A program made the translations under genes and the position numbers. DNA of 62,760 nucleotides from a virus (Duplodnaviria; Caudoviricetes). The notes beneath the pieces were generated by a model. The model was given only the letters and a program-made list of their open reading frames with translations. It made no database searches and was not told where the DNA came from. Below are positions 26,237 through 44,522 of the stretch, one piece after another (the stretch's first letter is position 1; every line of letters begins with the position of its first letter). Location: positions 1-62,760 of IMG/VR virus record IMGVR_UViG_3300044707_000497; one strand, written 5' to 3'.

Positions 26237-26253
26237 TAACCGTGAAATTTGGA

Positions 26254-26357
26254 TAAGCCGTGAGTGTCCTGGTCAAGGTGCAGTCGTTTGGTTTGGTTGG
26301 CTGATACCTTTTTCATCACGCAAGCCCGCCGCGTGTGGCCTAACCACGGAAGGCGGG
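26254..26357 (+). ncRNA. Pseudoknotted structured RNA motif, copy 1
   Basis: TAAGCCGTGAGTG...CACGC-aa-GCCCGCC-GCGTG...AACCACGGAAGGCGGGC; homologous to 44443-44522 with stem covariation. Confidence 0.65.
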
Positions 26358-26365
26358 CACCTTTT

Positions 26366-26393
26366 TTGAACATCCACAACCCCACATTGTCAG
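26366..26393 (+). promoter_or_regulatory. Candidate ECF-type promoter upstream of the operon containing the sigma gene
   Basis: TTGAAC-N17-GTCAG followed by TAATAACCTC. Confidence 0.5.
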
Positions 26394-26410
26394 TAATAAC
26401 CTCGCAACCT

Positions 26411-26680
26411 ATGCAACAAGAACAACTCGAACTCTTCAACGGCTCAGACTACGAACCGTGCCGAGACAGCGTAAGGCTTTCAGCCCAGCACAATAGAATT
26501 AAAAACCTCATGCTCGACGGGCAAGCCCGCACGCTCGGGCAGATCGCCGAAGTCACCGGAGACCCCGAAGCAAGCATCTCGGCTCAACTGCGACACATGA
26601 GAAAAGAACGCTTCGGGGCTTACACCGTAAGCAAAAACCATTTAGGAAACGGACTTTATACTTACAAAGTAACAAAATGA
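26411..26680 (+). CDS. Winged-HTH protein
   Basis: RTLGQIAEVTGDPEASISAQLRHMRK; ATG at 26411. Confidence 0.75.
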   Translation: MQQEQLELFNGSDYEPCRDSVRLSAQHNRIKNLMLDGQARTLGQIAEVTGDPEASISAQLRHMRKERFGAYTVSKNHLGNGLYTYKVTK

Positions 26681-26925
26681 GACCTATAACTGAAGCAATG
26701 CAGGAGAGCGAAAGAACAATAATCGTAGAGAAGCGGTTGCTCACCCAGCTGCAAAAATTAGCAGCCAAGAACATGAGAGTTAGGCGTCTCGCTAAAAGGA
26801 TAACAATGCGAGGGGCTGCTAAGATGCTTGGGATCAGTGCTTCACACTACTCGGACATCGAGAACGGACACCGCAACCTGAGCGTCAAACTCGCAATCAA
26901 GGCCGACAAATCATTCTGGGTATGA
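26677..26925 (+). CDS. XRE/Cro-like HTH regulator
   Basis: RRLAKRITMRGAAKMLGISASHYSDIENG. Confidence 0.85.
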   Translation: MRPITEAMQESERTIIVEKRLLTQLQKLAAKNMRVRRLAKRITMRGAAKMLGISASHYSDIENGHRNLSVKLAIKADKSFWV

Positions 26926-27110
26926 ATAAAGACTACCCCAACTGGGCATGCTGGGACTGCGGAACCAAGCACGGCGCGAACAAGAAACAAGACCGCGTAT
27001 CAACTTGGCACTACGGCAAATGTGATGTCTGTGACGAGAACAAGAACGTAACTGAACCTAGGGACTACGGGCACTTCCCTAACTGGTTCAAGGAGAAAGG
27101 AAATAAATGA
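26922..27110 (+). CDS. Small zinc-finger protein
   Basis: CWDC...CDVC. Confidence 0.7.
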   Translation: MNKDYPNWACWDCGTKHGANKKQDRVSTWHYGKCDVCDENKNVTEPRDYGHFPNWFKEKGNK

Positions 27111-27529
27111 AAATTGAAGTAACCAACGGCGTTGAAACCCCCGTAACGAAGTTTTTTTCCACTACGCCACAGACAGATGCCGCCATCAAAGCTCAAGCGG
27201 AATGGAGAAGGCCATTTATATCCTACACAATGAATGGCGTTACATGGGATGGGCCGGTTGCTGATTTGTGTCGAAGACTGGAACGCGAGCGCGACGAGTG
27301 GCGCAATAAATTTGATCTATCTGTTGATGCCGTCGAAATAGCTGCATGTTTAGCGCGAGCCGAAAGCGAGCGCGACGAAGCGCGTAAGCACTGCGAGTCC
27401 ATTGTCGATAAAGCCAAGGAACTCATCGCCCGATGGGACCAGCCATCATGGAAAGACACCGCTCCGACTGCAAGGTTCATTAACGCTTTGCGTATTGCCG
27501 TGAGAGCCTACGAGGAGAGACTGAAATGA
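27107..27529 (+). CDS. Hypothetical coiled-coil protein
   Basis: LERERDE repeats; coupled overlaps. Confidence 0.65.
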   Translation: MKIEVTNGVETPVTKFFSTTPQTDAAIKAQAEWRRPFISYTMNGVTWDGPVADLCRRLERERDEWRNKFDLSVDAVEIAACLARAESERDEARKHCESIVDKAKELIARWDQPSWKDTAPTARFINALRIAVRAYEERLK

Positions 27530-27780
27530 AAATATACCTATTATCCAGCGGCCTAATTGGTAACGGGAGCGCCGCGCCTGAAGCCGCCTTCACAACCAAA
27601 AAGGCGATGCTGGCCTACATCAAGAAAGAATACCCCGACGCGAGGGGCACAAACCGAATGGAGAAGGACGAACTTTACTGGGAATACGAATTGGGCTGGG
27701 TCATGGCAGAAAAAATACCCTTCTTTTCTGACATACAAGAGAAAATTGAAGCAATGAATCAAAGACTCAGGGAGCCATGA
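27526..27780 (+). CDS. Hypothetical protein
   Basis: ATGA overlaps on both sides. Confidence 0.65.
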   Translation: MKIYLLSSGLIGNGSAAPEAAFTTKKAMLAYIKKEYPDARGTNRMEKDELYWEYELGWVMAEKIPFFSDIQEKIEAMNQRLREP

Positions 27781-27974
27781 AGCTACCAGAGTCGTGTCAG
27801 AGGAAAAAGCGGTATTCCGAACTCTTAACCGCCCGAAGACAAGCTACGAAGGCATGGGTTTTCGATGGGACACCGCTTTGGCCTTACCGCTGTAGGTTTT
27901 GCATGGAATGGCATCTCACCTCGCAGTCCCCCGACAAGCAACTTAAGAACGGCTACAACACGATACTGAAATGA
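27777..27974 (+). CDS. Small zinc-binding protein
   Basis: CQRKKRY...YRCRFCMEWHLTS. Confidence 0.7.
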   Translation: MKLPESCQRKKRYSELLTARRQATKAWVFDGTPLWPYRCRFCMEWHLTSQSPDKQLKNGYNTILK

Positions 27975-28465
27975 CAGAGGAAGAATTTAACCAAGCCGTC
28001 GCCGACAATTTTGCGAAGCTGGTGAGGACCGCCGAGGCAGTCCTAGGGTGCCACGATTCCGCCAAGGATTCGGTGCAGCAAGCGGTCATCCGAGTTTGGA
28101 AGAATATCGCCACTTTTGATCCGAAGAAGGGAGCCTTTGTAACACTGCTGCATGTCGCGGTGAAGCGCCAAGCCATAAGCCATCAAATCTCGCGCAAGCG
28201 TAGGCTTACGGCTATGGAACGCTTCTGGGTAGATATTATCCCCGAGCGCCCGAGGAAGGCCGACCCACGCTTGCAAGGTTTGATGGACGCCTTGGACGAG
28301 TTGCCCGAGAAGAAACAGGCGCTCCTTCGGGAACACTTCTTCGAGGGCAAGACCGTAGCGGAAATCGCCGAAGAGATGGGGCTGTCGCGAGCCGCCACGG
28401 GCGCACGGATCAAGACTCTCAAAGGGGCGCTGAAGCGGCAGTATAGAAAAAAGATACGCACATAA
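27971..28465 (+). CDS. ECF-type RNA polymerase sigma factor
   Basis: Region 2 (AKDSVQQAVIRVWKNIATFD...F) and region 4 (LDELPEKKQ...EGKTVAEIAEEMGLS). Confidence 0.88.
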   Translation: MTEEEFNQAVADNFAKLVRTAEAVLGCHDSAKDSVQQAVIRVWKNIATFDPKKGAFVTLLHVAVKRQAISHQISRKRRLTAMERFWVDIIPERPRKADPRLQGLMDALDELPEKKQALLREHFFEGKTVAEIAEEMGLSRAATGARIKTLKGALKRQYRKKIRT

Positions 28466-28494
28466 CGGCGCTACGCCAGATATGCGTATAGAAT

Positions 28495-28524
28495 AACCCT
28501 CGGTAGTGGTGCCGAGGGTTTTTT
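28495..28524 (+). terminator. Rho-independent terminator
   Basis: AACCCTCGGTA-GTGG-TGCCGAGGGTT followed by TTTT. Confidence 0.85.
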
Positions 28525-28529
28525 CTTGC

Positions 28530-29000
28530 CCCGAGGGTGGGGGGTCTGGGGGGAGTTATTAACTTTCACCAAAAAATAAGTAACTCCGAGTGATGACATT
28601 ACATCAAAATGGGGGGAAGGGGGGGGGGGGGGGGTGGGAGAAATAAAAATAAAAAAAACTACGGCGACGAGAAAAAACCCCTAATATATTATATTTTTTT
28701 AAACGGTAGAATAGGACAAACCCCCTTTCCCCCCGAGAGGGGTTAAAAGCCTCCACTCGTATCGGTTAGTGTGGGGGGTTTGAGAAAAAACTGACCCCCC
28801 GAGACCCCCCGTTTTTTACAAACCCCCCGCTTGCGCTCGGCCCCTCCACTCGGCCTAAAAATAAATATGCGTATGAATGTATATTTCCAAAAATCGACAA
28901 AAAATTTATTTGGGGTCAAATGATAGTCGCCACCGGCGATAGCCGGTGATAGCCCCCTACCCTGGTGGGGTGGGTGGTGGGGTCGAATTTCCGTCCATAA
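28530..29000. other. Low-complexity non-coding G/C- and A/T-tract region (candidate genome terminus/pac site or origin)
   Basis: G16 run at 28619-28634, many G/C runs and IRs, no credible ORF; lies between the end of the middle genes and the early region. Confidence 0.45.
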
Positions 29001-29271
29001 GTGCCTCTACGGGTTTTCAACCCGTATCCCCTGAATCCATAAACCATTGATTCACAGCAAGTTAGCACATCTGCCGCTTTGCTTTGTCCAGCATTGCACA
29101 GCATTTCCAGCGTAGAAAGCCCGTTTTTGCAAAGTTTTCATTGCCCTAGGGCACAAGGGTTTATGGCTACTTTGTTCAAAAGTTAATAACTGGCAATTTT
29201 TGCAGAAAAGCCGTAGATTGGCAAGGCAAAGCCTTGAAAATGAGTAGCTTGCAAAGATTCCGTATAGAGAA

Positions 29272-29929
29272 GTGTCGGAGACGACATTAAACATCAGTCG
29301 GGGCTGGCTCGCCAGTCCTCGCAAGTGATCTTTTTAGTTTGCGGGAATGACCTACGGATGAGGATGGAAGCCCTCACATTGGTTCAAGTCGGAACGGGCT
29401 TTAGCTCATAAGTTTCTGACGGACTTCAGTCCAACTGAACCAAAGTAGAATGCTGCCTGCATCAATGCTGAATTGATTTTCGGTCTTTGACATTTTGACG
29501 GAGTGAATCTCCAAGTGGCGGTTGGTTGAGACGCGGCGGTATATCGGGCAGTCCGAATCCGCTGAAGCGGTAAACCTATAAAGGCTTCAGGGCAATAATC
29601 TGGAAACGGGTTGAACCTCATTTCGGGGCGTGTTCGGGGCGCATTGTGGCGGATTTATCCGCTGGCGGCTACTCCCTCGCAACTCTCTCGCAATGATCCG
29701 TAGCATCCAATTATTGAAAATTTTAGTTTAGGAGAGCCCTTGCGCTATGCAAGCAAGGGGAAGCGGCCAAAGGCCGACGCGGCGGCGATGCCTCACCGCG
29801 TTAGTTCAACTTAAACGGCGACAATAGAAGCCAACCCGAATCTGATCAACGGCAATGTCTAACAGTGTTGCCACCAGTAGCGCGGTTCGATCAGTGAAGG
29901 CAATCACTCTTCAGGCGGTGGAAGAGTGA
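29272..29929 (+). ncRNA. Large multi-hairpin structured RNA / early leader
   Basis: More than 15 hairpins with G-U pairs on the + strand, a long-range helix CTACGGAT(29352)/ATCCGTAG(29696), no credible ORF. Confidence 0.7.
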
Positions 29930-29997
29930 GGTTAATGCAACCAAGAATCCATGTGGATTCTTGCCAGTCACAAGTCTGGAGAGAATGCAGAGTGACC
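29930..29997 (+). ncRNA. Twister ribozyme (type P1)
   Basis: P1 GGT/ACC, TAA, P2 TGCA/TGCA, AC pairing with loop GT, P3 CAAGAATCC/GGATTCTTG, P4 CCAG-TCACAAGT-CTGG, GAGTG; predicted cleavage U29933/A29934. Confidence 0.88.
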
Positions 29998-30025
29998 AAC
30001 CCGCAGTAAAATAGAAAGTAAAACC

Positions 30026-30457
30026 ATGCAAGTTATTGAAACACAAATCACAGCCCCAGCCGTCGCAGCAGCAGTCACCCGCGACATTGTCACATCCAAG
30101 GGCAAAGTCACTGGGACTGAATTCATCTTCGAGATGGGCGATACCAAAGCCCTCAAAGAAGCGATCAAATCGGCTCATCCAGATTGGGGCAACAAGCGGA
30201 TCAGCCGTGAGGTTGCTGTCCTCCGTGCCGACAAGATGGCGGCAAGCCGCCTCCAAGCGGATGCCTTCGTCGGAATGCAGTTCGCCAAAGGCCGCACGGC
30301 TGTCCTCGGTAAGGATCGCAACAGCGGCAAGTCTTCCCTCCACTTCGAGGATTGCAATGTCGAGGCTGATGGCACTGCCATCCTCAAGGCTGCCGCTCAA
30401 AAGCTGGCCGACAAGATGGGCTGGACATTGGAGGCTGCCATCGAAGCTCTCAAGTAA
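30026..30457 (+). CDS. First early gene, hypothetical protein (143 aa), flanked by ribozymes
   Basis: aaaaccATG context, strongly biased codon usage. Confidence 0.85.
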   Translation: MQVIETQITAPAVAAAVTRDIVTSKGKVTGTEFIFEMGDTKALKEAIKSAHPDWGNKRISREVAVLRADKMAASRLQADAFVGMQFAKGRTAVLGKDRNSGKSSLHFEDCNVEADGTAILKAAAQKLADKMGWTLEAAIEALK

Positions 30458-30512
30458 GGTCGAAACACCCCGCAAGGGGTGTCTGTCCGTAATGCGGACA
30501 CTGATGATGACC
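30458..30512 (+). ncRNA. Hammerhead ribozyme (type II)
   Basis: GGTC-GAAAC-ACCCC-GCAA-GGGGT-GTC^-TGTCCG-TAATG-CGGACA-CTGATGA-T-GACC; predicted cleavage after C30483. Confidence 0.92.
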
Positions 30513-30541
30513 ATCTGCAAAACCTTAACAAGAAAGAAGAT

Positions 30542-30757
30542 ATGACAGAAATTATCGCAATCGCTTTAGACAATCTCAAGGATGCCCGTGACAATGGGCA
30601 ATCCCAATTCCCAAGCAATGATATTCTCGCCGCTTGCATCACCATCGCCAAGTCAAAGGCTTCTCAAGTAGAAGAAGACTTATATGGAATCATATGCCGT
30701 GGAAACACTGGCGAATTCCGTTTCACTGATCACTCCTTTCGGTTTTTCCCTCTCTAA
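30542..30757 (+). CDS. Hypothetical early protein
   Basis: ATG at 30542 downstream of the hammerhead; the longer track start runs through the ribozyme. Confidence 0.65.
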   Translation: MTEIIAIALDNLKDARDNGQSQFPSNDILAACITIAKSKASQVEEDLYGIICRGNTGEFRFTDHSFRFFPL

Positions 30758-30759
30758 TT

Positions 30760-31284
30760 ATGACATCCAACTTCCAACAAATCCGCGAGCATGGAATCCT
30801 GAAGGCTGATCCAATGCTCGACCGCAAGGATTGGTCTTTCGACCATCGCGGCGAGATCATCGCCAGGTATAAAAACAAGGTGGCGGGCAACAAGACATCC
30901 AAGTATAAGGAAATCCGCAAGCCTCTCCCGACTCCCCTCGAAACAAGGCTTGCCCTCCAGTCTCGGCTTCTCATTGCCGCCCAAGAGCGGGGCAATGTGC
31001 CACTGAATCATGCACCAAAGAAGCCTGCACCAGTGCATTTCGTTCTCATTGTAGAGAATAAGACTTTCTTCCCTGAAGTAGAGAAGGATGGAGAAACCGT
31101 AAGAATGCCCCTCCGTGTTGTGAAGGGCACGATTATCGGCACGAATAAATTCCGCGAGGAGTTTTCCATCGTGAAGCGGTCTTGCAACCTGAAGGTTGCC
31201 AAGATCAGGGCAAGAGTTGCCCGAGTTTGCGGCGACGCTGCCGCCAAAGAATTAGATCAGTGCATCATCAACCTATACAAATAA
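30760..31284 (+). CDS. Hypothetical basic early protein
   Basis: 174 aa, tightly packed with neighbours. Confidence 0.7.
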   Translation: MTSNFQQIREHGILKADPMLDRKDWSFDHRGEIIARYKNKVAGNKTSKYKEIRKPLPTPLETRLALQSRLLIAAQERGNVPLNHAPKKPAPVHFVLIVENKTFFPEVEKDGETVRMPLRVVKGTIIGTNKFREEFSIVKRSCNLKVAKIRARVARVCGDAAAKELDQCIINLYK

Positions 31285-31691
31285 TGAAAGACCTCGTTAT
31301 GACACAATACTGCAAAATAAATCCTATGTTAATCGAAGCAACGCTGTTTCAAATCACCCACACTCATAATCGGTATAACGACCGCCATAATTGGTCATGG
31401 CCCCGACAACGCACCAGCACCTTTGTTCTTAGGGACAAGCCAAAAACCTCTTGGCAAGATGTAGCCGAAGAGTGTTTCCACATCACCAATGCGCCCGAGG
31501 AAATGCTTTCAGAGTCGCAGATGCAGCTTGCTGCATCGCACAAGAAAGCATCTTTGTCAGTCGGCGACATCGTTCAGGTGACGCATCCATGCGGCACTGA
31601 GTTCTTCATGTGCCTTTCTTCGGGGTGGAAGAGGGCTGAAGCCGACGAGCTTTCGCAGTTCTTTGGCTGCCTCGTCACAACAGAAAAATAA
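31284..31691 (+). CDS. YodL-like domain protein
   Basis: SLSVGDIVQV...FFMCLSSGW. Confidence 0.6.
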   Translation: MKDLVMTQYCKINPMLIEATLFQITHTHNRYNDRHNWSWPRQRTSTFVLRDKPKTSWQDVAEECFHITNAPEEMLSESQMQLAASHKKASLSVGDIVQVTHPCGTEFFMCLSSGWKRAEADELSQFFGCLVTTEK

Positions 31692-31702
31692 TTCCTATCA
31701 TA

Positions 31703-31870
31703 ATGAAAATTATATCCATCCTGCTCATCATCGCATGGTGTTTGGCTTTCCCGACGGCGTTCTTCGTCGTCTGGGCTTGCAACATGTCAGTTGGCGAAGC
31801 CCTCCCACTCCTTTCTGCGACGAGTGCCCTTGGCCTCATCGCTGGAATCATCCACGAAAAATACGCTTGA
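31703..31870 (+). CDS. Small two-TM membrane protein (55 aa)
   Basis: MKIISILLIIAWCLAFPTAFFVVWAC...LPLLSATSALGLIAGII; not in the ORF track. Confidence 0.6.
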   Translation: MKIISILLIIAWCLAFPTAFFVVWACNMSVGEALPLLSATSALGLIAGIIHEKYA

Positions 31871-31912
31871 AGTTAATAACCGTTTCACTAAAACCACAAC
31901 CAAACAACCAGA

Positions 31913-32485
31913 ATGAACCCGAACCTTGACCCTGACGACGACGAGCGGCCTGCACGCTCATTCCGCCGTGACCCCGACGACCAACCAACGAGTGAAGACT
32001 TGTTGAAAGAAGCGCGAGAATTCCATGATGAGTGGTCTCGCCGCAACCCTAACCGAGTCTATGGCTACTCATACCCCGACTGAACCAATGAATCAAAGAA
32101 CCACTGATCCATTGAACGAGTGGCGTCTTGGCAAGCGTATTGCCGAGGCGCTAGGGCTCAAGCCCGTCGGAGAAAACAAATACAAAACCCAGTGGGGCGT
32201 GAAGAACCCCATCGCATTAACCAAGGCGCTCCGCGCCATTCTCAAATGAACGAAGACATCACACTTCCTTGGTATGGCGGCGTGCCGTGCCTCATCTCGC
32301 AGTATCGAATCGTCGCCAGCAACACCGGCTTCGGCTGGTTTGCTGTCGAGAGGTGGGACTTCGGCTTAGGGCAGTATGCCCCGCTGACATCGTTCCGCGA
32401 CTTTGACCAGGCCAGAGAGTTCATCCGTCTGGAGTCTTTTAGAGAGAAGTCCCTTTCCCCAGAACAACAAACCACAAACCAATAG
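31913..32485 (+). other. Three small hypothetical CDSs (31913-32083, 32088-32249, 32246-32485)
   Basis: Tightly packed ORFs with A-rich start contexts. Confidence 0.55.
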
Positions 32486-32497
32486 AAAACCAAAACC

Positions 32498-32944
32498 ATG
32501 TCATGCTTCATTGTTAGCAACGAAACAATCGGTCGCGTCGCCCTAGCCACAGATGCCAAGGGTAAATACAACGAACGACTCAGCACAGCGTTCGAGGAAA
32601 TTGGCTACGACCTTTTTGATGTCGAGCGCCTTGCCCGAGACCTATTCGACCTCAATGTGGATGCGTTCTGTGAACGCTACCCCGCCGACGAAGATGCCCC
32701 AGAGGGTCAGCGCACCCGATACCCCGAGGACATCCCCGAGTTCGAGTTTATCCCATTCACAGGCAAGTTGGATCGGGCAGCACTGATCCAAGCCCACAAG
32801 TCGGCATGTTGCCTACACTACCAGTGCAGTGAAGGGGATGTTCCCGAGCGCCCACTATACAAGGCTCTCAAGAAGTTCATCCGCGACCTCGAAAGAGACC
32901 TCGTCACCAACACCCCCGAATGGGAAGAAGCCCTTTGGGGGTGA
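32498..32944 (+). CDS. Hypothetical early protein
   Basis: 148 aa, CLHYQCSEG motif. Confidence 0.75.
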   Translation: MSCFIVSNETIGRVALATDAKGKYNERLSTAFEEIGYDLFDVERLARDLFDLNVDAFCERYPADEDAPEGQRTRYPEDIPEFEFIPFTGKLDRAALIQAHKSACCLHYQCSEGDVPERPLYKALKKFIRDLERDLVTNTPEWEEALWG

Positions 32945-32950
32945 AGTCAT

Positions 32951-32975
32951 AACCGTTCCCCTCAGAACACAACCA
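32951..32975 (+). repeat. 25-bp intergenic direct repeat (second copy 37466-37490)
   Basis: AACCGTTCCCCTCAGAACACAACCA is identical at both sites. Confidence 0.9.
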
Positions 32976-32993
32976 TCAACCAATAGAAAAGAA

Positions 32994-33626
32994 ATGACAA
33001 CTACAACAGCACCAGCAATTAAGAAAATAAACCTCGGAGGCATTGCCACCAAGAAAGAGGGCAGCAAGACAAGCTACCCCACTCTGCCTGATCCATGCGG
33101 CGATGTCGCCAAGTTGACGAGCGACATTGTCAATGAAACCCGAGAGATTGAAGCCATAGAGGCCAGCATCGGCATCAAGACAAGGGAGTTGAAGGCTCTT
33201 GCTCAAGACTTCTACTTCAACCACCACCACAACAAGCATGATGTTCCATCAAGCGTGGAGGCTGTCGGAGTGAACAGTGAGAAAGTGCTTATCAGTATCC
33301 AAAACCGATACGCAACTCTGGCCGACGAAACTCCTATCATAGAGGTGCTTGGCGAGGAGCGCACGGCGCAGTTCTTCCGGCAGTCCTTCGAGCTAAAGAT
33401 TGACGGCGACAAGATTCCCGCCGACAGCGCCGAGTCGCTTATTATGGCGGTGCAAGCATTGTTCGCTGAATACAATGCAACCGAAGCGTTGACAGCCAAG
33501 GCCGTCATCAAGCCGACATCGGAGTTCCACGCCGCACGCCACACGGCGCTGTCGGTAGAGGAGAACATGGCCGTCGAACGGGTTTGCCCCGCTCGCATTG
33601 CACTCAGCACGAAAGGACGGAAATGA
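32994..33626 (+). CDS. Hypothetical protein
   Basis: ATG at 32994; 210 aa. Confidence 0.75.
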   Translation: MTTTTAPAIKKINLGGIATKKEGSKTSYPTLPDPCGDVAKLTSDIVNETREIEAIEASIGIKTRELKALAQDFYFNHHHNKHDVPSSVEAVGVNSEKVLISIQNRYATLADETPIIEVLGEERTAQFFRQSFELKIDGDKIPADSAESLIMAVQALFAEYNATEALTAKAVIKPTSEFHAARHTALSVEENMAVERVCPARIALSTKGRK

Positions 33627-33865
33627 AACTCATTAAGTTCACACAAGTTGTAAAAAGCCGTGAAGAGTATCCCGTTTACATAAACCCAGATACCGTGTCC
33701 AGAGTCCGAATCTTGACTCGCCATGAGAAACTATCGGCGGCCCCCGAGGCGACCACCTACCTCGTTATGGGCAGTGCCAGTATTCATCTCAGCGAGAGCT
33801 TAGAGGAAGTCATTGCCGCGCTCACATCACCCACCTTAGCAACCCGATTAGCATCAAAACTATGA
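33623..33865 (+). CDS. Hypothetical protein (FlbD-like pattern)
   Basis: MKLIKFT...VYINPDTV...LSESLEEV. Confidence 0.6.
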   Translation: MKLIKFTQVVKSREEYPVYINPDTVSRVRILTRHEKLSAAPEATTYLVMGSASIHLSESLEEVIAALTSPTLATRLASKL

Positions 33866-34003
33866 ACGACGACGACGGTTACGACCTGAGCAGCGAGATT
33901 GAGGAGGAGCGCCGAGAGCGTTACTTCCACAAATGCGCCATGCGCGACATGGATCAAGGCATCCGCCCTACTTACTGGGATGAACCGGAAAAGGAGGAAG
34001 ACA

Positions 34004-34806: not shown

Positions 34807-34818
34807 AAAGAAAACCGA

Positions 34819-35750: not shown

Positions 35751-35751
35751 T

Positions 35752-35943: not shown

Positions 35944-35980
35944 CCCCAGAACACAAAACCACAACCATAGAAACAAAACC

Positions 35981-37453
35981 ATGCCAACAACATCACTAAC
36001 ACCAACAGAAATCGACGGCCTCAACTACGACGCCGCCAAGAAAGAGGTCTATGCCTGCGGATTCAAGGGCACATGGATCGCTAACGCCAACAGCGCAACG
36101 CTCAGGTCTCTTCTCAAGGGAGAGGTTGACCCCATCGAAGCTGCAACCATCACCCTCAACGCGATGGCAACCAAGAGCGGAGGGACGCCAGCGCCTATCA
36201 TCAGTGCTGCTGCTCCTACGCCGCCGCCCGCTCCTGCCCCAGCGGCTCCTGTCTCACTCGACGGGATGTTCGGTGCAGCCATCGGCGCTGCGGTTGACGC
36301 CCACCTCAAGGGTATCCACGACCGACTCGACGAGATCAGCGACGCCGTCGGCTCCACGCCGCCTGACATCGAGGATCGCTTGCAGAAAGTGCAAGACACC
36401 GTCTTGAGTCAGTGCAGCGTGATTGACAGTTCGCTCGAAACCTTGAAGACAAAGATCGCTGACGCGCTCGCCACAGGTGGCGCTGCTGCTGCGCGTGTCA
36501 TCGCTCCCATCCTCGGGGTCGCCGCGAGCGGCACGCTCGACCCAATCAAGCGTGCCCTAGAGTATTACTGCGCCCCAGGCGCATCGCTCAAACCAGTCCT
36601 GGTCAAAGGCGGCCCTGGCTCTGGTAAAACCTACGCCGCTCGCGAGCATGGCAAGTCCTTCGACCGCTATGTTGAGATCGGCGTTTACCCTGAGACTCAG
36701 TCCAGCGACTTGATCGGCTACATGACTCCTGTGGAGCCTTGGGTTGACGGCCCGCTCACCGACGCGTTCCGCGCTGCGGCTGCGGGTCAGCGTGTCTTGC
36801 TTGTCATCGACGAGCTTTACCGCGCCAGCGGCCCCGCCCGTCAGTGCTTGCTCACGCCGCTTGTCCCAGCGGTAATTGATGACAAGTCCTACTACCGCCT
36901 CCGCACAGGCAAGCCTGTTGTTGACTCGGTCACGGGTGCCACGACAAGCGAGGTGCTTCTTGCTCCGCAAGAAAACCTTGCCATCGTTGCCACGACCAAT
37001 GTCGGCGGCAAGTTCGATGTCAGCCCTGCTGATCCGGCTGAGAAGGAACGCTTTGTTCCTGTCCATGTTGAGGTGCAAGAGTCCAAGCTGCGCGGTATCC
37101 TCGATTCGTGGACTACTGCGAAGGGTTTCAACCCCTTTGTCACTGATGCGGTCGTCAAGTTCTGGAAGGCGTGCAAGGTTCTTGTCGCTGACAACTTCCT
37201 TGAGCAGTGCCCTTCCACTCGCATCCTCTCCGAGGCGTTGAAATACAGTAGGGACGAGGCTGATGTTCCAAACCGCATCCTCGACATGGGCTTGCACATC
37301 TGGGTTGCCGAGACCCTCGACGGTCTGCCCGAGCCCGAGCAGTGCAAGCGCGTAGTCGATGCGTTGCGGGGTGCATTCCCTGCCTTCAAGCCCGAACCCA
37401 CCGGAGACCCTGCAATCGACGCAATAATCCTGCCGACTCCATCTCCATTCTGA
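35981..37453 (+). CDS. MoxR/CbbQ/CobS-like AAA+ ATPase
   Basis: GGPGSGKT, WVDGPLT, LVIDE, ATTN, ERF, STR. Confidence 0.9.
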   Translation: MPTTSLTPTEIDGLNYDAAKKEVYACGFKGTWIANANSATLRSLLKGEVDPIEAATITLNAMATKSGGTPAPIISAAAPTPPPAPAPAAPVSLDGMFGAAIGAAVDAHLKGIHDRLDEISDAVGSTPPDIEDRLQKVQDTVLSQCSVIDSSLETLKTKIADALATGGAAAARVIAPILGVAASGTLDPIKRALEYYCAPGASLKPVLVKGGPGSGKTYAAREHGKSFDRYVEIGVYPETQSSDLIGYMTPVEPWVDGPLTDAFRAAAAGQRVLLVIDELYRASGPARQCLLTPLVPAVIDDKSYYRLRTGKPVVDSVTGATTSEVLLAPQENLAIVATTNVGGKFDVSPADPAEKERFVPVHVEVQESKLRGILDSWTTAKGFNPFVTDAVVKFWKACKVLVADNFLEQCPSTRILSEALKYSRDEADVPNRILDMGLHIWVAETLDGLPEPEQCKRVVDALRGAFPAFKPEPTGDPAIDAIILPTPSPF

Positions 37454-37501
37454 TTCAGGTGTAAGAACCGTTCCCCTCAGAACACAACCAAAACCATAAC
37501 C

Positions 37502-37705
37502 ATGTATTACGGAAAAAATAATAGCCAACCTTCAGACAACGGCAGCACACGCCGTTACGACCCCTCAAGAGCGCAACTAGAAGACAGCTTGCATTGGGCG
37601 CGGAAAAAAGAAGAGCGCGTTTGGGGGAGTGGAGAACACGAAGCCGCCCGCGCCGAAGTTCAACGCCTTGAAGCAGCCATCTTAAAAACAACCAACAAGA
37701 AATAA
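37502..37705 (+). CDS. Hypothetical protein
   Basis: 67 aa between the AAA and vWA genes. Confidence 0.55.
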   Translation: MYYGKNNSQPSDNGSTRRYDPSRAQLEDSLHWARKKEERVWGSGEHEAARAEVQRLEAAILKTTNKK

Positions 37706-37723
37706 ACCAACAAGAAATAAACC

Positions 37724-39286
37724 ATGCCAACTGCAACATTAAGAATACGACGCGAAGTTGATGACCACCACATCGGCTACCGCACCAAGGGCACACTGCC
37801 CGAAACCTACGACTTGCGCTGGGACAAAGCATCTCAGACGGGTTGCTGGCGCTACGACCACGCATCCAAGCGCCATGTCATATCAATTAGCCCTGATGCC
37901 TACAATGTCATTGCTGACAAGGGTCTGACCCGATGCCAGACCGAGCTATACAAGAACATCTACGAGCATGAGGCATCGCACTCGCTCTACACCACCAAGC
38001 ATCTCAAAGACCTTGGCGACACGCTCAAGGCCGAGAAGATTCCGTGGCGGTTGATGAACCTCTTCGAGGATGTCCGCATCGAGCGTCTGTGGTGGGTTCA
38101 CCAGCGATCCAAGAAACACTGGCGCTGGACTCGCTGGACCAAACATCCCGCCGACATCATGACGGTGACTCCGACCCAGTTGCTTTTCCGTTTCAAGTGC
38201 GGCGATGTGGGGCGCAGACCCCCTAGGGCGCTGATGTCGTATCGTGCGCTCCCGTTCTTTGACAAGGTCTGGAACTACTTCAACCGTATCGTGTGCCTTG
38301 CCCGTATCAAATGCACCACAAACGAGTTGCTACCTGTCCTCAAAGACTGGCTCAAGGATTTCCCTGAGACTGGTGACGACACCATTGAGGCAGAGGGCGG
38401 CGATGGAACTGGTGATCTGGCCGAGGCTGTCGCCAAGGATGGCGGCAAGGTCGAGGACGTCAAGGGCGGTGCCCCAGCCCCCGCGCCTGCCCCTGTTGAC
38501 GACCCCTCTCACGCCAAGGGTGGCGCTACTGACGAAGGTGTCGCACCGAAGTCTATGATCCGCAACGAGCCCGTTGTTGCGCGTCAGGTTGCGAAGATGC
38601 TCGCCAGTGCGTTCCGCGCCTTCGGCCCGACCAAGGCACCCACATCCAACCCGTCAAAGCGACTCAACCTCAAAGGTCTGTTGCGCGGTGACTGGAGCCT
38701 CCCGTTTGTTGGCAAGACGATTGCCGACAACGGTGCCCCATACATCTCGCTGATCTTTGACGGCAGCGGCTCGATGTCCGGTCAGTTGGCTTACCTCGAC
38801 CGCGAGAGGCGCAACGAGTGCCGCGCCGCCGATGCTGGCCGCGTCTTGGTTCGCGCCCTATCCGACCTCGCATCCAAGGGTCACATCCAAGGCAAGGTTT
38901 ACTTGTCCGGCTGTCTCGGAGTCATGGCCGAGTTCCCACTTCCTGTTAAGGATGTGAAGAACTTCGCTGTCCTCTGGGGCAACGATTGCAGTGAGGGCAT
39001 CGGCATCACGTTGAGCCCAACTGCTACGACGGGGTATAAGTCAGCGTTCCACGAGATCACCTCGAAGTCCAAGCTCGCTATCGTTTACACCGACGGCGAG
39101 ATCACCGACGCGCCGGTCAATCGCGCTGCGCTCAAAGCCAAGGGGCTTTACACCCTAGGGATTTGCTGCGCCTCCCGCGACAAAACTCCGTGTCTCAGGA
39201 AGCACTTCGATTCCTTCATCAGCCGCGACTCGCTCTTCGGTCTTGCCGATGCGCTTGTCCGGTTCCTCCGCAGCCGCAAATTCTAA
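37724..39286 (+). CDS. HExxH metallopeptidase-like plus vWA domain protein (CobT-like partner)
   Basis: HEASH, NLFEDVRIE, MIDAS DGSGS, YTDG. Confidence 0.88.
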   Translation: MPTATLRIRREVDDHHIGYRTKGTLPETYDLRWDKASQTGCWRYDHASKRHVISISPDAYNVIADKGLTRCQTELYKNIYEHEASHSLYTTKHLKDLGDTLKAEKIPWRLMNLFEDVRIERLWWVHQRSKKHWRWTRWTKHPADIMTVTPTQLLFRFKCGDVGRRPPRALMSYRALPFFDKVWNYFNRIVCLARIKCTTNELLPVLKDWLKDFPETGDDTIEAEGGDGTGDLAEAVAKDGGKVEDVKGGAPAPAPAPVDDPSHAKGGATDEGVAPKSMIRNEPVVARQVAKMLASAFRAFGPTKAPTSNPSKRLNLKGLLRGDWSLPFVGKTIADNGAPYISLIFDGSGSMSGQLAYLDRERRNECRAADAGRVLVRALSDLASKGHIQGKVYLSGCLGVMAEFPLPVKDVKNFAVLWGNDCSEGIGITLSPTATTGYKSAFHEITSKSKLAIVYTDGEITDAPVNRAALKAKGLYTLGICCASRDKTPCLRKHFDSFISRDSLFGLADALVRFLRSRKF

Positions 39287-39291
39287 CCAAT

Positions 39292-39346
39292 TACGCATGG
39301 TCCCCTGTCGCCGTGAACAAGTGATTCACGGGGCAGGGGTTGCGTG
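39292..39346 (+). promoter_or_regulatory. Long intergenic hairpin (RNase III-like processing site or terminator)
   Basis: TACGCA..CCCCTGTC.CCGTGAA / TTCACGG.GGCAGGGG.TGCGTG; no U-tail. Confidence 0.55.
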
Positions 39347-39356
39347 AACCTTTAAC

Positions 39357-42180
39357 ATGAAAACTTACCTAGTCACCATTAAATCCCAAGTCATCAAGAC
39401 AATAAAAGTCGAAGCCCCCTCCAGCGAGGAAGCCGAGATCGTAGCCCACGAGTTGTTCCACCATCACCCCGAGAACTCTGAGAAATACAACCAAGAAACA
39501 ATCAGCATCAACACATTATGAAAATAGAAGAAGCAATCGCACAACTAATTCAAGAGAAAAACAACGGAACCAAGAGCATCATCTTGGCCTATTGGAAGGC
39601 CGACCTGTTCGACCGACAGGACGACTATGAATGGGAGTCCGACACCGAGTTAGTAGAGAATGAGATGGATTGGTCGAAAGCGCACGACCAAATGGACGAC
39701 CTGATCGGAAGCCTCAATGAAGAAGACTAAACCTATGAAAAATAAAAAATACGCAGTCATCGTCCACGCCGCAGCAGTCAACGAGTGGACATACGAAGTC
39801 CTCGCCACCTCGCAAAAGGAGGCCGAGAAAATCATCCGCGAAGGGTTGAAAGGCGACCGAGAGTTGCCCGACCCCACCAACTACGAACAGGGCAACGAGG
39901 TCGATGGCGAACTCGTAGTCGCTGACTCCTACGAAATCTAAAAACCTAAACAACAAAATAATATGAAAAATTGGAAAATATCCTTCGGAAAAATTGTCGA
40001 TCAAGACGATAAAGTTATCTGCGGCTTGCCCAAACGGGAAAACAACGATGCCGCCCACCTCATCGCCAGCGCCCCCGAGTTGCTGGATTCGCTGAAGGAC
40101 TTGGAAAATATCCTGTCCTGCAAACCATACGATAGGGACGAGCAAAAACTTTTGGTTATTGCCCGTGCCGCCATCGCCAAAGCGAAAGGAGAAATCAAAT
40201 GAACGCCCAACACACACCTGGCCCTTGGGCTGTCGCAGGCGAATCCTATAACGACCACGAAGCCTATGTTATTGAGGCGGGGGGCCGGACGATCTGTTGG
40301 ACTGCCAGCAGTTTAGACGATGCAGGTATCGAAGTTATCACCGCCGAAGACGATGCTAACGCCGATCTCATTGCTGCTGCTCCCGAGTTGCTTATCGCAC
40401 TAAAACAAATTGCAGATTGGGACCCCAGCGCAGCGCCAAGCGAACCAAAAGGCCTGTCGATTATCGACGCAATCGACATTGCCCGCGCTGCAATCGCCAA
40501 AGCGAAAGGAGAATCCAAATGACAACAATCCAAGGCGGCTTTCCCTATGAGGAAATCCGGCGACCAGATGGAGATTACTTCCAAAGTTGGAAGGAAGCTA
40601 AAGACGCAGGCTTTGACGACGACCAGATATGGTCAGTTACAACATCCGATGGTGACGATGGTTCCGAGTGGATTATTACCGGCCCGCCGCACCACTTCTG
40701 CAACCACATAGGTCATATCGCAACCCTAGAGCGACATGACCACAACACCTATTACGAAGAATGCTGGCTCACCGCAGAAGAAGCCGCAGAAAACGATGAA
40801 GACTAAATTATGAAACCATTAGAAACAATACAAACCGCTCTTGAAGCCTATGTTCAAGAGTGCCCATCCGAAGCAAAGTCCATCGACAAGGCGTGGGGCA
40901 AGGTAACACTTACCCTGCGCTGCGCCCTCGCCGACCTCGAAGGCATCATGCCCGAGTTCGATCCGAGCGGAGACAGAGAACACCCCGCTTGGAAAACCAT
41001 TAAAGACCTTAGAAAGCTAGGTGTTACCCTTCTCGGGAACCTTAAACAACAATGAAGACAATACAACACACACCTACTATGAAATTCAAATTTCACGCCA
41101 CTTACGAAGAATACCTCTCACTCGAAGTCGAAGCCGAGTCCTTAGAAGCTGCCCAAGAAATCGCCGAGAAAAGCGATGGCGGCGATTGGAAACATGAAGA
41201 CAGCAGCGATTGGGTAATAGAACACGACCTTACCGAGAACTTAGATACCCAAGTGCAGCGGGCATGGTTAATAGACTTCAAAGCAGAGTTCATGCGCCGA
41301 ACTGGAATCACTTGGGAAGACGCAGGCAATACAGATCAAGACGCACTTGATCGGTATTTCGAGGTCGGGCGTGAGCGGGTCGCAGAAGAAGCGGTCTCAC
41401 AATACATAGAAAAATACGACCTCAACGACATTACCTTATGACAACAGACATCATTGGAGAATACCGGTTCGACCTAGGGCAAATCTTTGTCACCCCAGGT
41501 GTGGAAGAACTCATCGACAAAGGACTCTTGCTTGACCTCTACATCGACCGCCACTGGCGGGGCGATTGGGGCAATCTTGACGACGAAGACAAACAAACCA
41601 ACGAAGACGCGGTTCTCCACGGAGACCGCATCCTATCATCATATCAGTCACCAGTCGGGAAGTTTTGGATCATCACCGAAGCCGACCGCTCAACCACCAC
41701 AGCAATCACACCAGACGAATACTGACGCTTGACAGCTACCAAAAAACCAATCAAACAAAATCAAATGCGACACATGTATCCACCAAACCCCGAAAAACTC
41801 GCAGCAGCCGCCCCTGAATTGTTGGCTTTGCTCTACGAAGCAAATCTCACAATGAGCCACATGGCGCTTCTAATCCCCAAAGGGGTAGGCGACGAAGATC
41901 ATTACGAAAAGCTTTACAAAGAAATCCAGCAAGCAATCTCGAAAGTTTACGACAAATGAAACCACACGACGACCTTTTAGACATGCTACGCCGCCACGGC
42001 GCAGCTGAATTAGCCGACCGCGTTGATGAGTGTGAACGCGGAACCGTTGGATTAGAAGCCCACGAATGGCGCGACGATCTCGGACAGTCCGTTATTAGCA
42101 GACACAACATCCACGCCGACATGATCGAGGATTTTGAATCCGCCCAGATTGACGGGTTGGATTTTATTATCCGACCATAA
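39357..42180 (+). other. Cluster of ~11 small early CDSs (39357-39521, 39518-39730, 39717-39941, 39963-40202, 40199-40522, 40519-40806, 40810-41055, 41052-41441, 41438-41725, 41765-41959, 41956-42180)
   Basis: Coupled start/stop overlaps. Includes DpnD/PcfM-like paralogs, LIAAAPELL paralogs and an RHWRGDWG...WIITEADRS protein. Confidence 0.7.
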
Positions 42181-42202
42181 CAAAAAATTCTAAAAAAAAA
42201 GT

Positions 42203-42231
42203 TTGAACAAGTAATAACCGTTCACTGTCTA
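42203..42231 (+). promoter_or_regulatory. Candidate ECF-type promoter with TAATAACCGT box
   Basis: A-tract then TTGAAC-aagTAATAACCGTtcact-GTCTA (N18). Confidence 0.55.
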
Positions 42232-42241
42232 AATAACCGCC

Positions 42242-42721
42242 ATGACATCCACATGCCTACCACCAGCAGCCTACTACCATATCAACCGCAACACTGAATC
42301 AGTGAAGCCAAGATTCAAAGAACCAGTTGACCCTGAGATACAAACAGCCCTTGATGGTCTGGGCGTATGGGTCGGAACCTCCCATGAATGGGAGGCGGCA
42401 TACCGCCTTGTGTTCGGGGAGAAATCCTTTGAAGAGGATTACTCCTGCATCGACTGGGTTGACCCGCTTTCTTGGTCGCACGACGCAGGGCAGTTTCGAG
42501 ACGCTTTCATCATGGCTGATGAGTTTGTCTTTAATATCATGCACCGCCTGTTTCCTTTCCAGCAAAAAGAACTTATCCCCGCGCTCACCTATGTTTTGAT
42601 CGCGAGTAGTTGGAGCCGCAGGAGCCCGCTACCCCGCAACATCGAGGAGCAAGACGCCATAACCCTTTTGAACCGTTTCAGCTATGACAACATGGCTGAC
42701 TGGCTCAAACAACAACACTAA
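42242..42721 (+). CDS. Hypothetical protein
   Basis: 159 aa downstream of the promoter motif. Confidence 0.65.
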   Translation: MTSTCLPPAAYYHINRNTESVKPRFKEPVDPEIQTALDGLGVWVGTSHEWEAAYRLVFGEKSFEEDYSCIDWVDPLSWSHDAGQFRDAFIMADEFVFNIMHRLFPFQQKELIPALTYVLIASSWSRRSPLPRNIEEQDAITLLNRFSYDNMADWLKQQH

Positions 42722-42732
42722 ACACAAACACA

Positions 42733-42861
42733 ATGAAAAGACTAATCATACTAGCAATCGCTCTTGTAGCAGCAGCTAACTACGACCCTAAACCCGCAAA
42801 GAAAGACACCCCGAAAAAGGTTGTCACCACCAAACAAGGCCCAACTAAATTCACATTCTAA
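42733..42861 (+). CDS. Small signal-peptide/basic protein (42 aa)
   Basis: MKRLIILAIALVAAANYDPKPAKK... Confidence 0.5.
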   Translation: MKRLIILAIALVAAANYDPKPAKKDTPKKVVTTKQGPTKFTF

Positions 42862-42864
42862 ATT

Positions 42865-43131
42865 ATGGAAAATAACCTAAATGAGTTTACCTCACTTGCA
42901 GAAGAAGCAGAAGCTACGCCTTTTGAAGGTTGGGCGGATATACTCACCGTCGGAAAACTGATCGAACTACTTCACGCGCATGACGTAAATACGCCTGTTG
43001 GTTTTACTAATTGGGAAGACGGGGAATGCCACTTCATTACTGGTTTAGAAATCCGACAAGTTGAACCCGACGGGGGAATACTTACGCGAGACATGGAAGG
43101 TGCCTCTCCTAAAGTTCTTGTATTGTGGTAG
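42865..43131 (+). CDS. Hypothetical protein
   Basis: LTVGKLIELL...PVGF pattern common in phages. Confidence 0.65.
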   Translation: MENNLNEFTSLAEEAEATPFEGWADILTVGKLIELLHAHDVNTPVGFTNWEDGECHFITGLEIRQVEPDGGILTRDMEGASPKVLVLW

Positions 43132-43172
43132 AGTGCCCTTGCCATTACTTAATAACCGTGTAACCATGAAGC

Positions 43173-43436
43173 ATGGCTACATGGAAAGGTAAACAAGTGA
43201 CGCTGAACTCCCCCCGCAAAATAGCGGGGGTGACGCCAGCAGGTAAAAAGAAATCAGTGTTCGTGAAATCCGATAAAGGAAATGTCAAAGTGGTTCACTT
43301 CGGCGACTCCTCTATGTCGGATTTCACGCAGCACCACAACGAGAAGCGCAGAAAGAACTTTCACGCCCGTCACAACTGCGCTGACAAAAAAGACAAAACC
43401 AAAGCTGGTTACTGGGCGTGTAAAAATCTCTGGTGA
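43173..43436 (+). CDS. Basic viral protein (DUF5754-like)
   Basis: KVVHFGD...DFTQH...RRKNFHARH...AGYWA..LW. Confidence 0.7.
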   Translation: MATWKGKQVTLNSPRKIAGVTPAGKKKSVFVKSDKGNVKVVHFGDSSMSDFTQHHNEKRRKNFHARHNCADKKDKTKAGYWACKNLW

Positions 43437-43615
43437 AATACATTAACCAAAAAAACTGCCGTGAATTTACACTCGAAGCTGCTCACACTCACCGCCCTGC
43501 TCATCCTTTTGATCGTGTCAGTCGAGAATTTCTTGAGCAACTTGATCGAGAAGTTCGCAACCTCATTATTCAGAAAGTGAAAGCCCTCCCGAGCGTCGGG
43601 AAAACAATCAAATGA
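43433..43615 (+). CDS. Putative histone-fold protein
   Basis: RVSREFLEQLDREVRNLIIQKVKALPSVGKTIK resembles the L1-alpha2-L2 of prokaryotic histones. Confidence 0.55.
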   Translation: MKYINQKNCREFTLEAAHTHRPAHPFDRVSREFLEQLDREVRNLIIQKVKALPSVGKTIK

Positions 43616-43869
43616 AAAGCTACCTACTTGAAGCAATCGCCAAGCATCTCGGCGAACATGACGCCGCACTCGAATACGACAGTGAAGACCGCAAATACCT
43701 GCGGCAACTCTTCGTGCAGCACGCATTCATCTTGAACGCCATCGAGTCGGAGCCCGAGTGTCAGGCCCTCGTTGAAAAAGTGATGACTTCGTTCATAGAA
43801 GCGCAGCGGGTCGAGTTGAAACCTGCCGATGACGAGAGTCCCAAGATCATAACCCCCGACAGGTTTTAA
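43612..43869 (+). CDS. Hypothetical protein
   Basis: 85 aa, coupled. Confidence 0.65.
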   Translation: MKSYLLEAIAKHLGEHDAALEYDSEDRKYLRQLFVQHAFILNAIESEPECQALVEKVMTSFIEAQRVELKPADDESPKIITPDRF

Positions 43870-43870
43870 T

Positions 43871-44425
43871 ATGGGAATGGCTAAACTCAGCCCCGAGGTC
43901 AAGAAGGCCAGGGCAGAAAGAAAGAAACGCAAAGCCCCGCGAGTGGCCGACTGGGTTGCGATCCGCGCCCTCTATTTGGGCGGTATGAAGTCTGAGGAGA
44001 TCGGGCAGAAGTTCGGCGTGACTGGCAACTTGATTCGCGCCCGTGCCCATGACGAGCGGTGGTTTGAGGTCGCCCTAGAACAGACCCCGAGGATGGTTGT
44101 GGACAAGATTATGAAGCAGGAAGCCGAGGCGACCGGAGCCATGCTTACTGAGATATGGGCCGAGCGGGGGAAATTGATTCGGGAAAAAGAATTTCGCATT
44201 GCCGAGAAGGCCGCGACCCACGCGGAGATGATGGATGACACGACGCTCCTCAACAAGATCGACAAGGTCAAAGTTGCTATCGACATGGGCCGTCGCTCCA
44301 CGGGGCTTGATAAAGTCGAAGCCAACCCGAACGCCGTGAACATCGCCGTGCTTGGCGACATCGGGATGTTTGAGAATGAGGCGAACGCCTTTAAAAAGGT
44401 AAAGCCCGTTCAACCCCCAGAGTAG
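43871..44425 (+). CDS. Probable terminase small subunit
   Basis: DWVAIRALYLGG...IGQKFGVTGNLIRARAHDERW N-terminal HTH followed by a helical body. Confidence 0.6.
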   Translation: MGMAKLSPEVKKARAERKKRKAPRVADWVAIRALYLGGMKSEEIGQKFGVTGNLIRARAHDERWFEVALEQTPRMVVDKIMKQEAEATGAMLTEIWAERGKLIREKEFRIAEKAATHAEMMDDTTLLNKIDKVKVAIDMGRRSTGLDKVEANPNAVNIAVLGDIGMFENEANAFKKVKPVQPPE

Positions 44426-44442
44426 TCAATTTGGTAAACTGG

Positions 44443-44522
44443 TAAGCCGTGAGTGCCACCGAGGACGTTCGGCAATACATCTATGCTACCCCGCCAAGCA
44501 TACCTCAAACCACGGAGGCGGG
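44443..44522 (+). ncRNA. Pseudoknotted structured RNA motif, copy 2
   Basis: TAAGCCGTGAGTG...TATGCT-ac-CCCGCC-a-AGCATA...AACCACGGAGGCGGG. Confidence 0.65.

Follow-up and report, generated by a model that had tools for sequence, protein, structure and literature searches.

Two copies of an RNA element in a phage genome

The stretch of DNA analysed here, the complete IMG/VR virus record IMGVR_UViG_3300044707_000497 at its full length of 62,760 bases (the window), belongs to a phage of the Caudoviricetes whose genes include a family-A DNA polymerase, a helicase, a DUF5906 primase-like gene, a sigma factor and a polyvalent protein of 3,812 amino acids (aa). Two copies of a compact RNA element lie on its + strand, at 26251-26367 and 44440-44522. 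On the sequence comparisons described below, both sites are members of a large sense-strand, intergenic phage RNA family that lies outside Rfam and is carried by hundreds of unrelated uncultured phages, and the core of the element is, as judged from its covarying strands, an H-type pseudoknot.

The element begins with a hairpin, termed P1x, whose loop has the consensus (G)YAAG-YCGUG-AGUG; the YCGUG of this loop pairs with the downstream AAC-CACGR to form a pseudoknot, PK1. A helix after P1x, termed P2x, encloses a variable domain that reaches up to N-AA-CCACGG. In long forms, both window copies included, this domain holds an optional hairpin, P2a, and a hairpin, P3x, the loop of which pairs with the 5-7 nucleotides (nt) right after CCACGR as a second pseudoknot, PK2, while in short forms 38-50 nt separate the two conserved blocks, with one simple hairpin inside the P2x region. 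Overall, the element measures 55-110 nt, with ~20 fixed bases and four covarying helices. The parts of the two window copies, and the features next to them (ORF, open reading frame), are as follows.

26234-26239, +: TAA TAA stops at the end of the DUF5906 primase-like gene (ORF 24584-26236), upstream of copy 1
26251-26269, +: copy 1, hairpin P1x, GGA 26251-53 with UCC 26267-69, placed by sequence and family covariation
26254-66, +: copy 1, P1x loop of 13 nt, UAAGCCGUGAGUG, in which CCGUG 26258-62 is the 5' strand of PK1
26258-62 with 26345-49, +: copy 1, PK1, CCGUG with CACGG
26271-26340, +: copy 1, middle domain, closed by P2x (GGUC 26271-74 with GGCC 26337-40), placed by the family test of P2x
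26275-26310, +: copy 1, variable hairpin P2a
26317-21 with 26331-35, +: copy 1, hairpin P3x, CACGC with GCGUG; its loop, 26322-30, holds CCCGCC 26325-30
26341-26349, +: copy 1, junction U-A-A-C, then CACGG (26345-49), the 3' strand of PK1
26325-30 with 26352-57, +: copy 1, PK2, CCCGCC with GGCGGG
26352-26367, +: copy 1, 3' strand of PK2 and the tail after it, CACC followed by U6 (26362-67)
44423-44425, +: TAG stop of a 184-aa ORF (43871-44425), upstream of copy 2
44440-44458, +: copy 2, hairpin P1x, UGG 44440-42 with CCA 44456-58
44443-55, +: copy 2, P1x loop, UAAGCCGUGAGUG, with CCGUG at 44447-51
44447-51 with 44511-15, +: copy 2, PK1, CCGUG with CACGG
44461-44506, +: copy 2, middle domain, closed by P2x (GAGG 44461-64 with CCUC 44503-06)
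44482-87 with 44497-502, +: copy 2, hairpin P3x, UAUGCU with AGCAUA; its loop, 44488-96, holds CCCGCC 44490-95
44507-44522, +: copy 2, junction AAA-C, CACGG 44511-15, A, then GGCGGG 44517-22
44490-95 with 44517-22, +: copy 2, PK2, CCCGCC with GGCGGG
44540-44564, +: terminator-like hairpin and T-rich tail, 18 nt past copy 2

Neither site looks like a product of chance. The window holds two perfect matches to the 13-mer TAAGCCGTGAGTG, and no more; the 15 others among the 17 matches listed have 2-3 mismatches. The composite pattern CCGTG..CCCGCC..CACGG has a chance expectation there of 0.03. R1, a covariance model built solely from copies of other phages, scores the two sites at 36.1 and 27.9 bits, with the next-best window match at 13.0, and covariance model search found no third copy in the window. 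In both copies, 14 nt separate the stop codon of the ORF from the first paired base. The minimum-free-energy folds of the copies are unremarkable (z of -1.60 and -0.75), as is expected for pseudoknotted folds.

An earlier note on this DNA, made from the sequence alone, had described the motif as an unrecognised pseudoknot in two covarying copies. The copies are present with the sequence and coordinates that it gave, by reading, R1 scores and chance checks alike; both start just past a stop codon (TAA TAA 26234-26239 and TAG 44423-44425), and all of the listed elements are there, namely CCGUG/CACGG, the stem that differs between copies (CACGC/GCGUG and UAUGCU/AGCAUA) and CCCGCC/GGCGGG.

Fold and covariation across the phage family

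When copies are set side by side, the bases flanking the conserved 13-nt block pair and covary, as GGA/UCC, UGG/CCA, ACUCC/GGAGU and GUCUC/GAGAC. The block is therefore the loop of a hairpin, P1x, and CCGUG/CACGG is therefore a pseudoknot, PK1, and not the stem closing a multiloop that the earlier note had proposed; the pairing itself stands, and covaries in the family. The pairing of the CCCGCC loop with the 3' GGCGGG, put forward in the same note, is real and covaries as PK2, and helices P1x and P2x are those that it had missed.

The family was drawn from IMG/VR by scanning for the two conserved blocks, 5' and 3', with the length of the gap between them left open, which gave 57 + 43 loci (99 distinct) for the pattern with C-G as the first PK1 pair and 79 loci (47 unique) for a U-A pattern in which that pair was changed on both sides; a stricter first pattern had given 14 loci, with the full plan in 6 by reading. 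Because fixed patterns defined this sample, the two blocks are constant in part by construction. Nearly all of the U-A loci have P1x, P2x and PK2, and a one-sided change to C.A yielded six loci of which only L343 looks like a member. By this comparison, PK1 covaries, its first pair being either C-G or U-A.

The helices were tested on 139 unique viral instances (81 C-G and 58 U-A). At least three contiguous P1x pairs form within the instance's own sequence in 113 of the 139, compared with 22% of 2,767 flank swaps, and 51 stem types are represented. P2x reaches at least four pairs in 86/139, compared with 23% when parts are swapped between instances, and PK2 reaches at least six pairs in 85 of 104 long forms, with 56 different 3' strands, compared with 35% of 3,002 swaps, a control that relatedness among the sequences inflates. 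In an Infernal alignment of 65 sequences, 90.4% of the cells of P1x and PK1 are paired, versus 76.2% after shuffling, and the covariation score is 0.370 versus 0.114, with none of 500 shuffles scoring as high; every slid register of the alignment scored far lower. Covariation of the helices, claimed earlier from the window, thus holds at the level of the family.

The conserved bases that remain unpaired are few. N-A-A precedes the 3' strand of PK1 in all members, and a pattern in which the first A of the 'AA' was replaced gave 18 loci with at most one real member, L348; that unpaired A is, on these counts, nearly invariant. The first scan had left free both the A before GCC and the AA, and both are present in 6/6 true matches. 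The base after PK2 is A in 74/101 cases, and CCACGG-CAG is frequent in short forms.

A less biased sample is provided by the primase-linked copies, which were reached through protein homology and not through the motif. The three closest primase relatives (81-92% identity) come from contigs with canonical copies, L243 has a canonical element and L253 has a 1-nt insertion in the loop. In L238-L241, with 65%-identical primases, stripped orthologues of copy 1 lie ~30-150 nt past the primase stop: P1x, P2x, P2a, P3x, PK2 and the U-run are kept, the loop is just AGUCGUGA, and PK1 is compensated as UCGUGA/UCACGA, with the UGA stop codon of the primase lying within the PK1 strand. At 14 more distant primase loci, no element was seen within 330 nt past the aligned part.

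Searches for further relatives were largely negative. A Python search of the fetched viral loci found no other PK1 sequences, in a sample biased by its selection through the pattern, and R1 run over 100 sources found no convincing divergent second copies; its weak matches in L031 and L066 are, on reading, not members. Four motif-bearing regions compared by blastn with a phage collection gave nothing, or one unrelated helicase match, as cultured-phage relatives. In many short forms (L078, L068, L071, L080, L082, L098, L039, L106, L076, L086), a second covarying module was seen within the 60-90 nt that come after CCACGG, in the order CAG, a 5-bp helix, G, a hairpin with a UCCUUU-containing loop, UGA and the partner of the helix, often followed by an intrinsic terminator; judging by its sequence, the UCCUUU loop could pair with G-rich terminator or Shine-Dalgarno sequences.

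The element is also absent from the catalogues searched. Rfam 15 gave no match to it on 12 copies (the window at gathering score, both copies at E<=10 and 10 loci at E<=5), in keeping with the earlier description of the motif as unrecognised. A likeness of the loop to a segment of 16S ribosomal RNA, or to domain 5 of group II introns, was set aside as short and without a partner strand. When 8.4 million papers and preprints were searched literally for the conserved strings, just primers and unrelated matches came back. Keyword searches on structured RNAs of phages, on new classes of ribozyme and on antitermination RNAs found the motif undescribed in the portions of text covered; the IMG/VR catalogue of structured RNAs (PMC10690425) may contain it in its supplements. 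The Minerva preprint, in the portion consulted, is unrelated to the element.

Genomic setting and possible non-catalytic roles

Copies lie on the coding strand, almost always between genes, and most of them begin soon past an upstream stop codon; in some, the UAA or UGA of the loop is itself the stop. There is no fixed spacing, the distance from stop codon to hairpin ranging from -15 to 106 nt in 45 scorable cases. Neighbouring proteins (73 upstream, 70 downstream) share no common family; some belong to no family and the rest to unrelated ones, among them primase, DNA polymerase, SSB, recombination genes, terminase, portal, MuF and protease. Some copies stand between genes that are normally co-transcribed, as between TerL and portal or MuF and protease.

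Most genomes carry a single copy, and the two in the window are therefore unusual. When R1 was run on 25 full virus records, 24 were matched, 22 of them once and two twice (one of the second matches being weak), and the single unmatched record is a contig with the U-A form; all 10 records that are at least 90% complete were matched. In one 90-kb phage (L022), two copies, at 272-338 and 857-928, 585 nt apart, flank a single 122-aa ORF. Contigs of metagenome-assembled genomes and prophages with real copies have been assigned to Terrimicrobiaceae (L134, closely related to copy 2), Phycisphaerae, Pirellulales, Bifidobacterium and Rhodocyclaceae, and to Uliginosibacterium gangwonense DSM 18521, a strain in culture; the scan of genome contigs is little guide to prevalence, as ~100 of those listed among its at least 121 matches are, on reading, chance matches within coding sequence. 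The copy in the U. gangwonense provirus (L074/L168) has a 12-nt loop, CAGCCGUGAGUG, with one A fewer; it lies downstream of a structural gene of the head module, and a long hairpin comes next.

What follows the element bears on a role at the ends of transcripts. A run of at least four U residues within 30 nt is found in 24/86 unique copies and a terminator-like hairpin within 90 nt in 12/86, compared with 2/225 controls. The 3' end of copy 1 reads GGCGGG-CACC-U6, a hairpin with a T-rich tail comes after copy 2, and in the large L279 lineage the element is, much like copy 2, the last feature ahead of a convergent giant gene. The element could be a non-catalytic module that aids termination and/or blocks 3'-to-5' exonucleases, fixing a stable 3' end of the upstream message; its double pseudoknot would fold once the ribosome leaves the nearby stop codon, to which most copies lie close, and in the primase lineage of the window the PK2 helix and U-run would act as an unusual terminator. 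That the L238-L241 orthologues keep fold and U-run and lose the conserved loop bases also fits. We nevertheless consider such a module rather unlikely, as ~58% of copies are without a nearby U-run or terminator, some lie between co-transcribed genes, the distances from the stop codon are broad, and a scan for consensus terminators does not call copy 1. Moreover, fixed unpaired bases would not be required in such a module, although both the loop block and the A of the 'AA' are conserved among very different phages. No sigma-70-like promoter was called upstream of either window copy, and a Rho-loading (C-rich, G-poor) tail was not seen, C exceeding G in 67/136 downstream windows. All 22 sequencing runs listed for the window are recorded as DNA.

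The same fixed bases recur in phages and contigs of very different bacteria, from Terrimicrobiaceae to Uliginosibacterium, usually in one copy per genome and at no fixed genomic position, which would suit an RNA that binds a universal host machine (RNA polymerase, ribosome or ribonuclease) or a small molecule, as a specific site or aptamer. It might act in cis on the message that carries it, as processive antiterminators do, or be processed out of that message to act in trans; frequent terminators just downstream would be expected for an antiterminator or for a gene that encodes a small RNA, and in one gut-phage lineage the element stands among RNA genes, ~160 nt upstream of a 10-tRNA array. 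(This copy, at L083:760-2214, is a short form within a structured-looking noncoding stretch of ~300 nt.) The architecture, in which a hairpin loop pairs with an A-preceded 3' strand, resembles that of small H-type aptamers. There is, however, no gene association of the riboswitch kind, and the terminators that are present do not overlap the element or its 3' strand. The known RNA antiterminator, HK022 put, consists of two long stem-loops without a pseudoknot, as described in the consulted part of PMC9378689. A binding role of this sort seems to us unlikely.

Least probable, and in our view very improbable, are the riboswitch and the antitoxin-like small RNA that the earlier note had suggested. 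A compact pseudoknot with conserved loop bases, and in a minority of copies a downstream terminator, would be in character for either. A riboswitch is at odds with flanking genes that share no family, many falling in none, and with terminators that do not overlap the element. An antitoxin RNA of the ToxI kind would be expected in tandem repeats, and the element occurs as single units, usually one per genome; among the 10 proteins flanking the window copies, no toxin or defence family was matched, and the sole matches were to two helix-turn-helix (HTH)-type models on one protein. The probability that remains after these readings and the catalytic one below goes to other roles.

Several features of the window lie beside these questions. 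By eye, the tail of copy 1 after PK2 (26357-26367, GCACCUU-U run) repeats the 3' strand of P2a (26275-26310), and in the primase lineage this tail could pair with the P2a 5' strand instead; the same relation is seen with different sequences in L011 (GUGGG/CCCAC) and L243 (AGAGGG/CCCUCU). Such alternative pairing beside a U-run suggests, from base complementarity, a possible two-state arrangement. The spacer past copy 1, 26368-26410 (TTGAAC ... CAGTAATAACC ... ATG), is kept in L238-L243 down to 59-65% primase identity, and may be a promoter or leader of the next gene block, which encodes an HTH protein and the sigma factor. At gathering score, Rfam reports one tRNA alone in the window, and the earlier description of a genome that uses ribozymes is not supported. 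This tRNA-Met (CAU), at 54715-54788 on the - strand, scores 55 bits in Rfam and is also called by ARAGORN; the stretch falls within the uninterrupted 3,812-aa ORF 45289-56727 on the same strand, which may be two genes with the tRNA between them, or may include a tRNA-like stretch that is translated.

Possible self-cleavage and the likeness to known RNAs

A small core of fixed unpaired bases within freely varying outer helices, the lack of a common neighbouring gene family and the single copy in most genomes are ribozyme-like traits; together, they have, by analogy, the look of small self-cleaving phage ribozymes. Our leading reading, tentative and clearly short of an even chance, is in line with the candidate new ribozyme of the earlier note: the element may be a small self-cleaving ribozyme that would cut the polycistronic phage message once. 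Within this reading, perhaps two thirds of the weight would go to cleavage in the manner of twister. At the same tentative level, the element would be either the first natural twister-type core to dispense with P3 and P4, its L4-like strand being fused directly to P2, or a new ribozyme class. The former would be a rearranged twister of a kind for which Eckert et al., who searched for non-circular and missing twister permutations, report no promising candidate in the consulted part of PMC10085705.

The proposed correspondence rests on the order of strands. That of the element is [P1x 5']-YAA-GC-CGUG-AGUG-[P1x 3']-[P2x helix]-N-AA-C-CACG-G(C), and the twister core has three strands: (1) P1 5'-U^AA-P2 5'-GC, (2) L4 T1 strand-AA-GC and (3) P2 3'-GA-T1 strand-P1 3'. 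The element would present these strands as 2, 3, 1, i.e. in the type-P3 order, with P1x corresponding to T1, PK1 to T2 and P2, and P2x to a closed P1; hairpins P3 and P4 would be deleted, the GC of L4 would be joined directly to the P2 3' strand, and P1 would be closed by the variable domain. The join between the L4 GC and the P2 3' strand would be geometrically natural because these two segments lie next to each other, on the same side of the P2-T2 helix. The cut is predicted 5' of the near-invariant A in N^AACCACGG, which in the window would be U26341^A26342 and A44507^A44508, so that the upstream message would keep the folded element and the downstream message would have a short leader. The twister mapping uses the Osa-1-4 sequence, which numbered residues in the consulted part of PMC5113685 partly confirm.

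The likeness to twister (Roth et al. 2014; RF03160, RF03154, RF02684) was judged against the consulted portions of PMC6154101, PMC5408937 and PMC5113685. Shared with twister are a three-strand double-pseudoknot core; an 'AA-GC' that directly precedes a helix strand, as it does in L4; a short T1-like helix, in which the strand preceding this AA pairs with one located a few nt past the 3' strand of P2; a P1-like helix right after the T1-like helix and right before N-A-A; and N-A-A itself, ahead of what would be the second P2 strand and a possible counterpart of U^AA. Both are also phage-borne, intergenic and independent of neighbouring genes. In twister, as the consulted text of PMC6154101 has it, L4 forms T1 and T2 and the helices stack as P1-T1-P2-T2; T2 consists of G13-C31 and C14-G30, P1 is dispensable and G13 tolerates no substitution in Osa-1-4, according to that of PMC5113685. 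The element differs in having no P3 and P4 hairpins, its AAGC strand running straight into the P2 3' strand, and in the connectivity of its putative T1 and T2, which in twister are made by the terminal loop of P4. The sequence of P2 is conserved in the element and variable in twister.

A number of observations weigh against self-cleavage in general, or against its twister-like form in particular. The T1 of twister is conserved in sequence (a C-rich L4 strand with a G-rich L1 strand), whereas P1x comes in 51 stem types. The equivalent of G13-C31 varies, being C-G in 81 and U-A in 58 unique instances, that of C14-G30 is G with C in 75/139 and G with A in 52, and the linkers are 1-2 nt longer. 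The Rfam models for twister, pistol, hatchet, hepatitis delta virus (HDV) and hammerhead ribozymes are silent on the same 12 copies. Short forms are without PK2. As most conserved loop bases are missing in L238-L241, the fold can persist without the presumed active-site bases, and a U-run or terminator-like hairpin lies downstream of 36/86 copies (~40%), which suggests that the element acts in transcription or at the 3' end of the transcript.

A conserved RNA found across phages of very different bacteria, with strong covariation and outside Rfam, is a rare find. Were the element to cleave itself, it would represent a new ribozyme architecture or a new connectivity of the twister fold, and a very small modular cleavage cassette; were it not to, it would be a conserved single-copy phage RNA with a partner nearly universal in bacteria, and equally worth finding. 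The prophage copy in U. gangwonense DSM 18521 offers an in vivo system in a cultured strain.

Several other known RNAs invite comparison. Of the topologies that the earlier note had excluded, hammerhead, pistol, hatchet and HDV stay excluded, and the exclusion of twister now needs a qualification, as the order of strands would resemble its core without P3 and P4. An HDV-like ribozyme, with its nested double pseudoknot (P1/P1.1/P2/P3/P4) and cleavage at the 5' end, was rejected as its helix order does not fit and Rfam gave no match. Intrinsic (Rho-independent) terminators share with copy 1, and with 24/86 members, a GC-rich helix (here PK2) near a U-run; in the element, this helix is a pseudoknot set 4 nt before the U-run, most members have no U-run, the fixed unpaired bases are not a terminator feature, and the consensus scan passes over copy 1. 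HK022 put RNA is likewise a cis RNA of ~70 nt in phage operons, and the two copies in the window and the terminators often found downstream recall it; put differs in its two long stem-loops with a triplex and no pseudoknot, and, in the consulted part of PMC9378689, in being known solely from a few lambdoid phages, after early promoters, whereas the element is usually single-copy. With pistol (RF02679), the element has in common the pairing of a hairpin loop with a strand farther downstream, as a pseudoknot of 5-6 bp, a linker rich in A and an association with phages (PMC6154101, in the part consulted). It has neither the P2 and P3 substrate helices and G-U site in the pistol arrangement nor a match in Rfam, and no P3 hairpin lies between its pseudoknot strand and closing P2 strand; in the element, it is the sequence of the pseudoknot that is conserved and the stem of the hairpin that varies.

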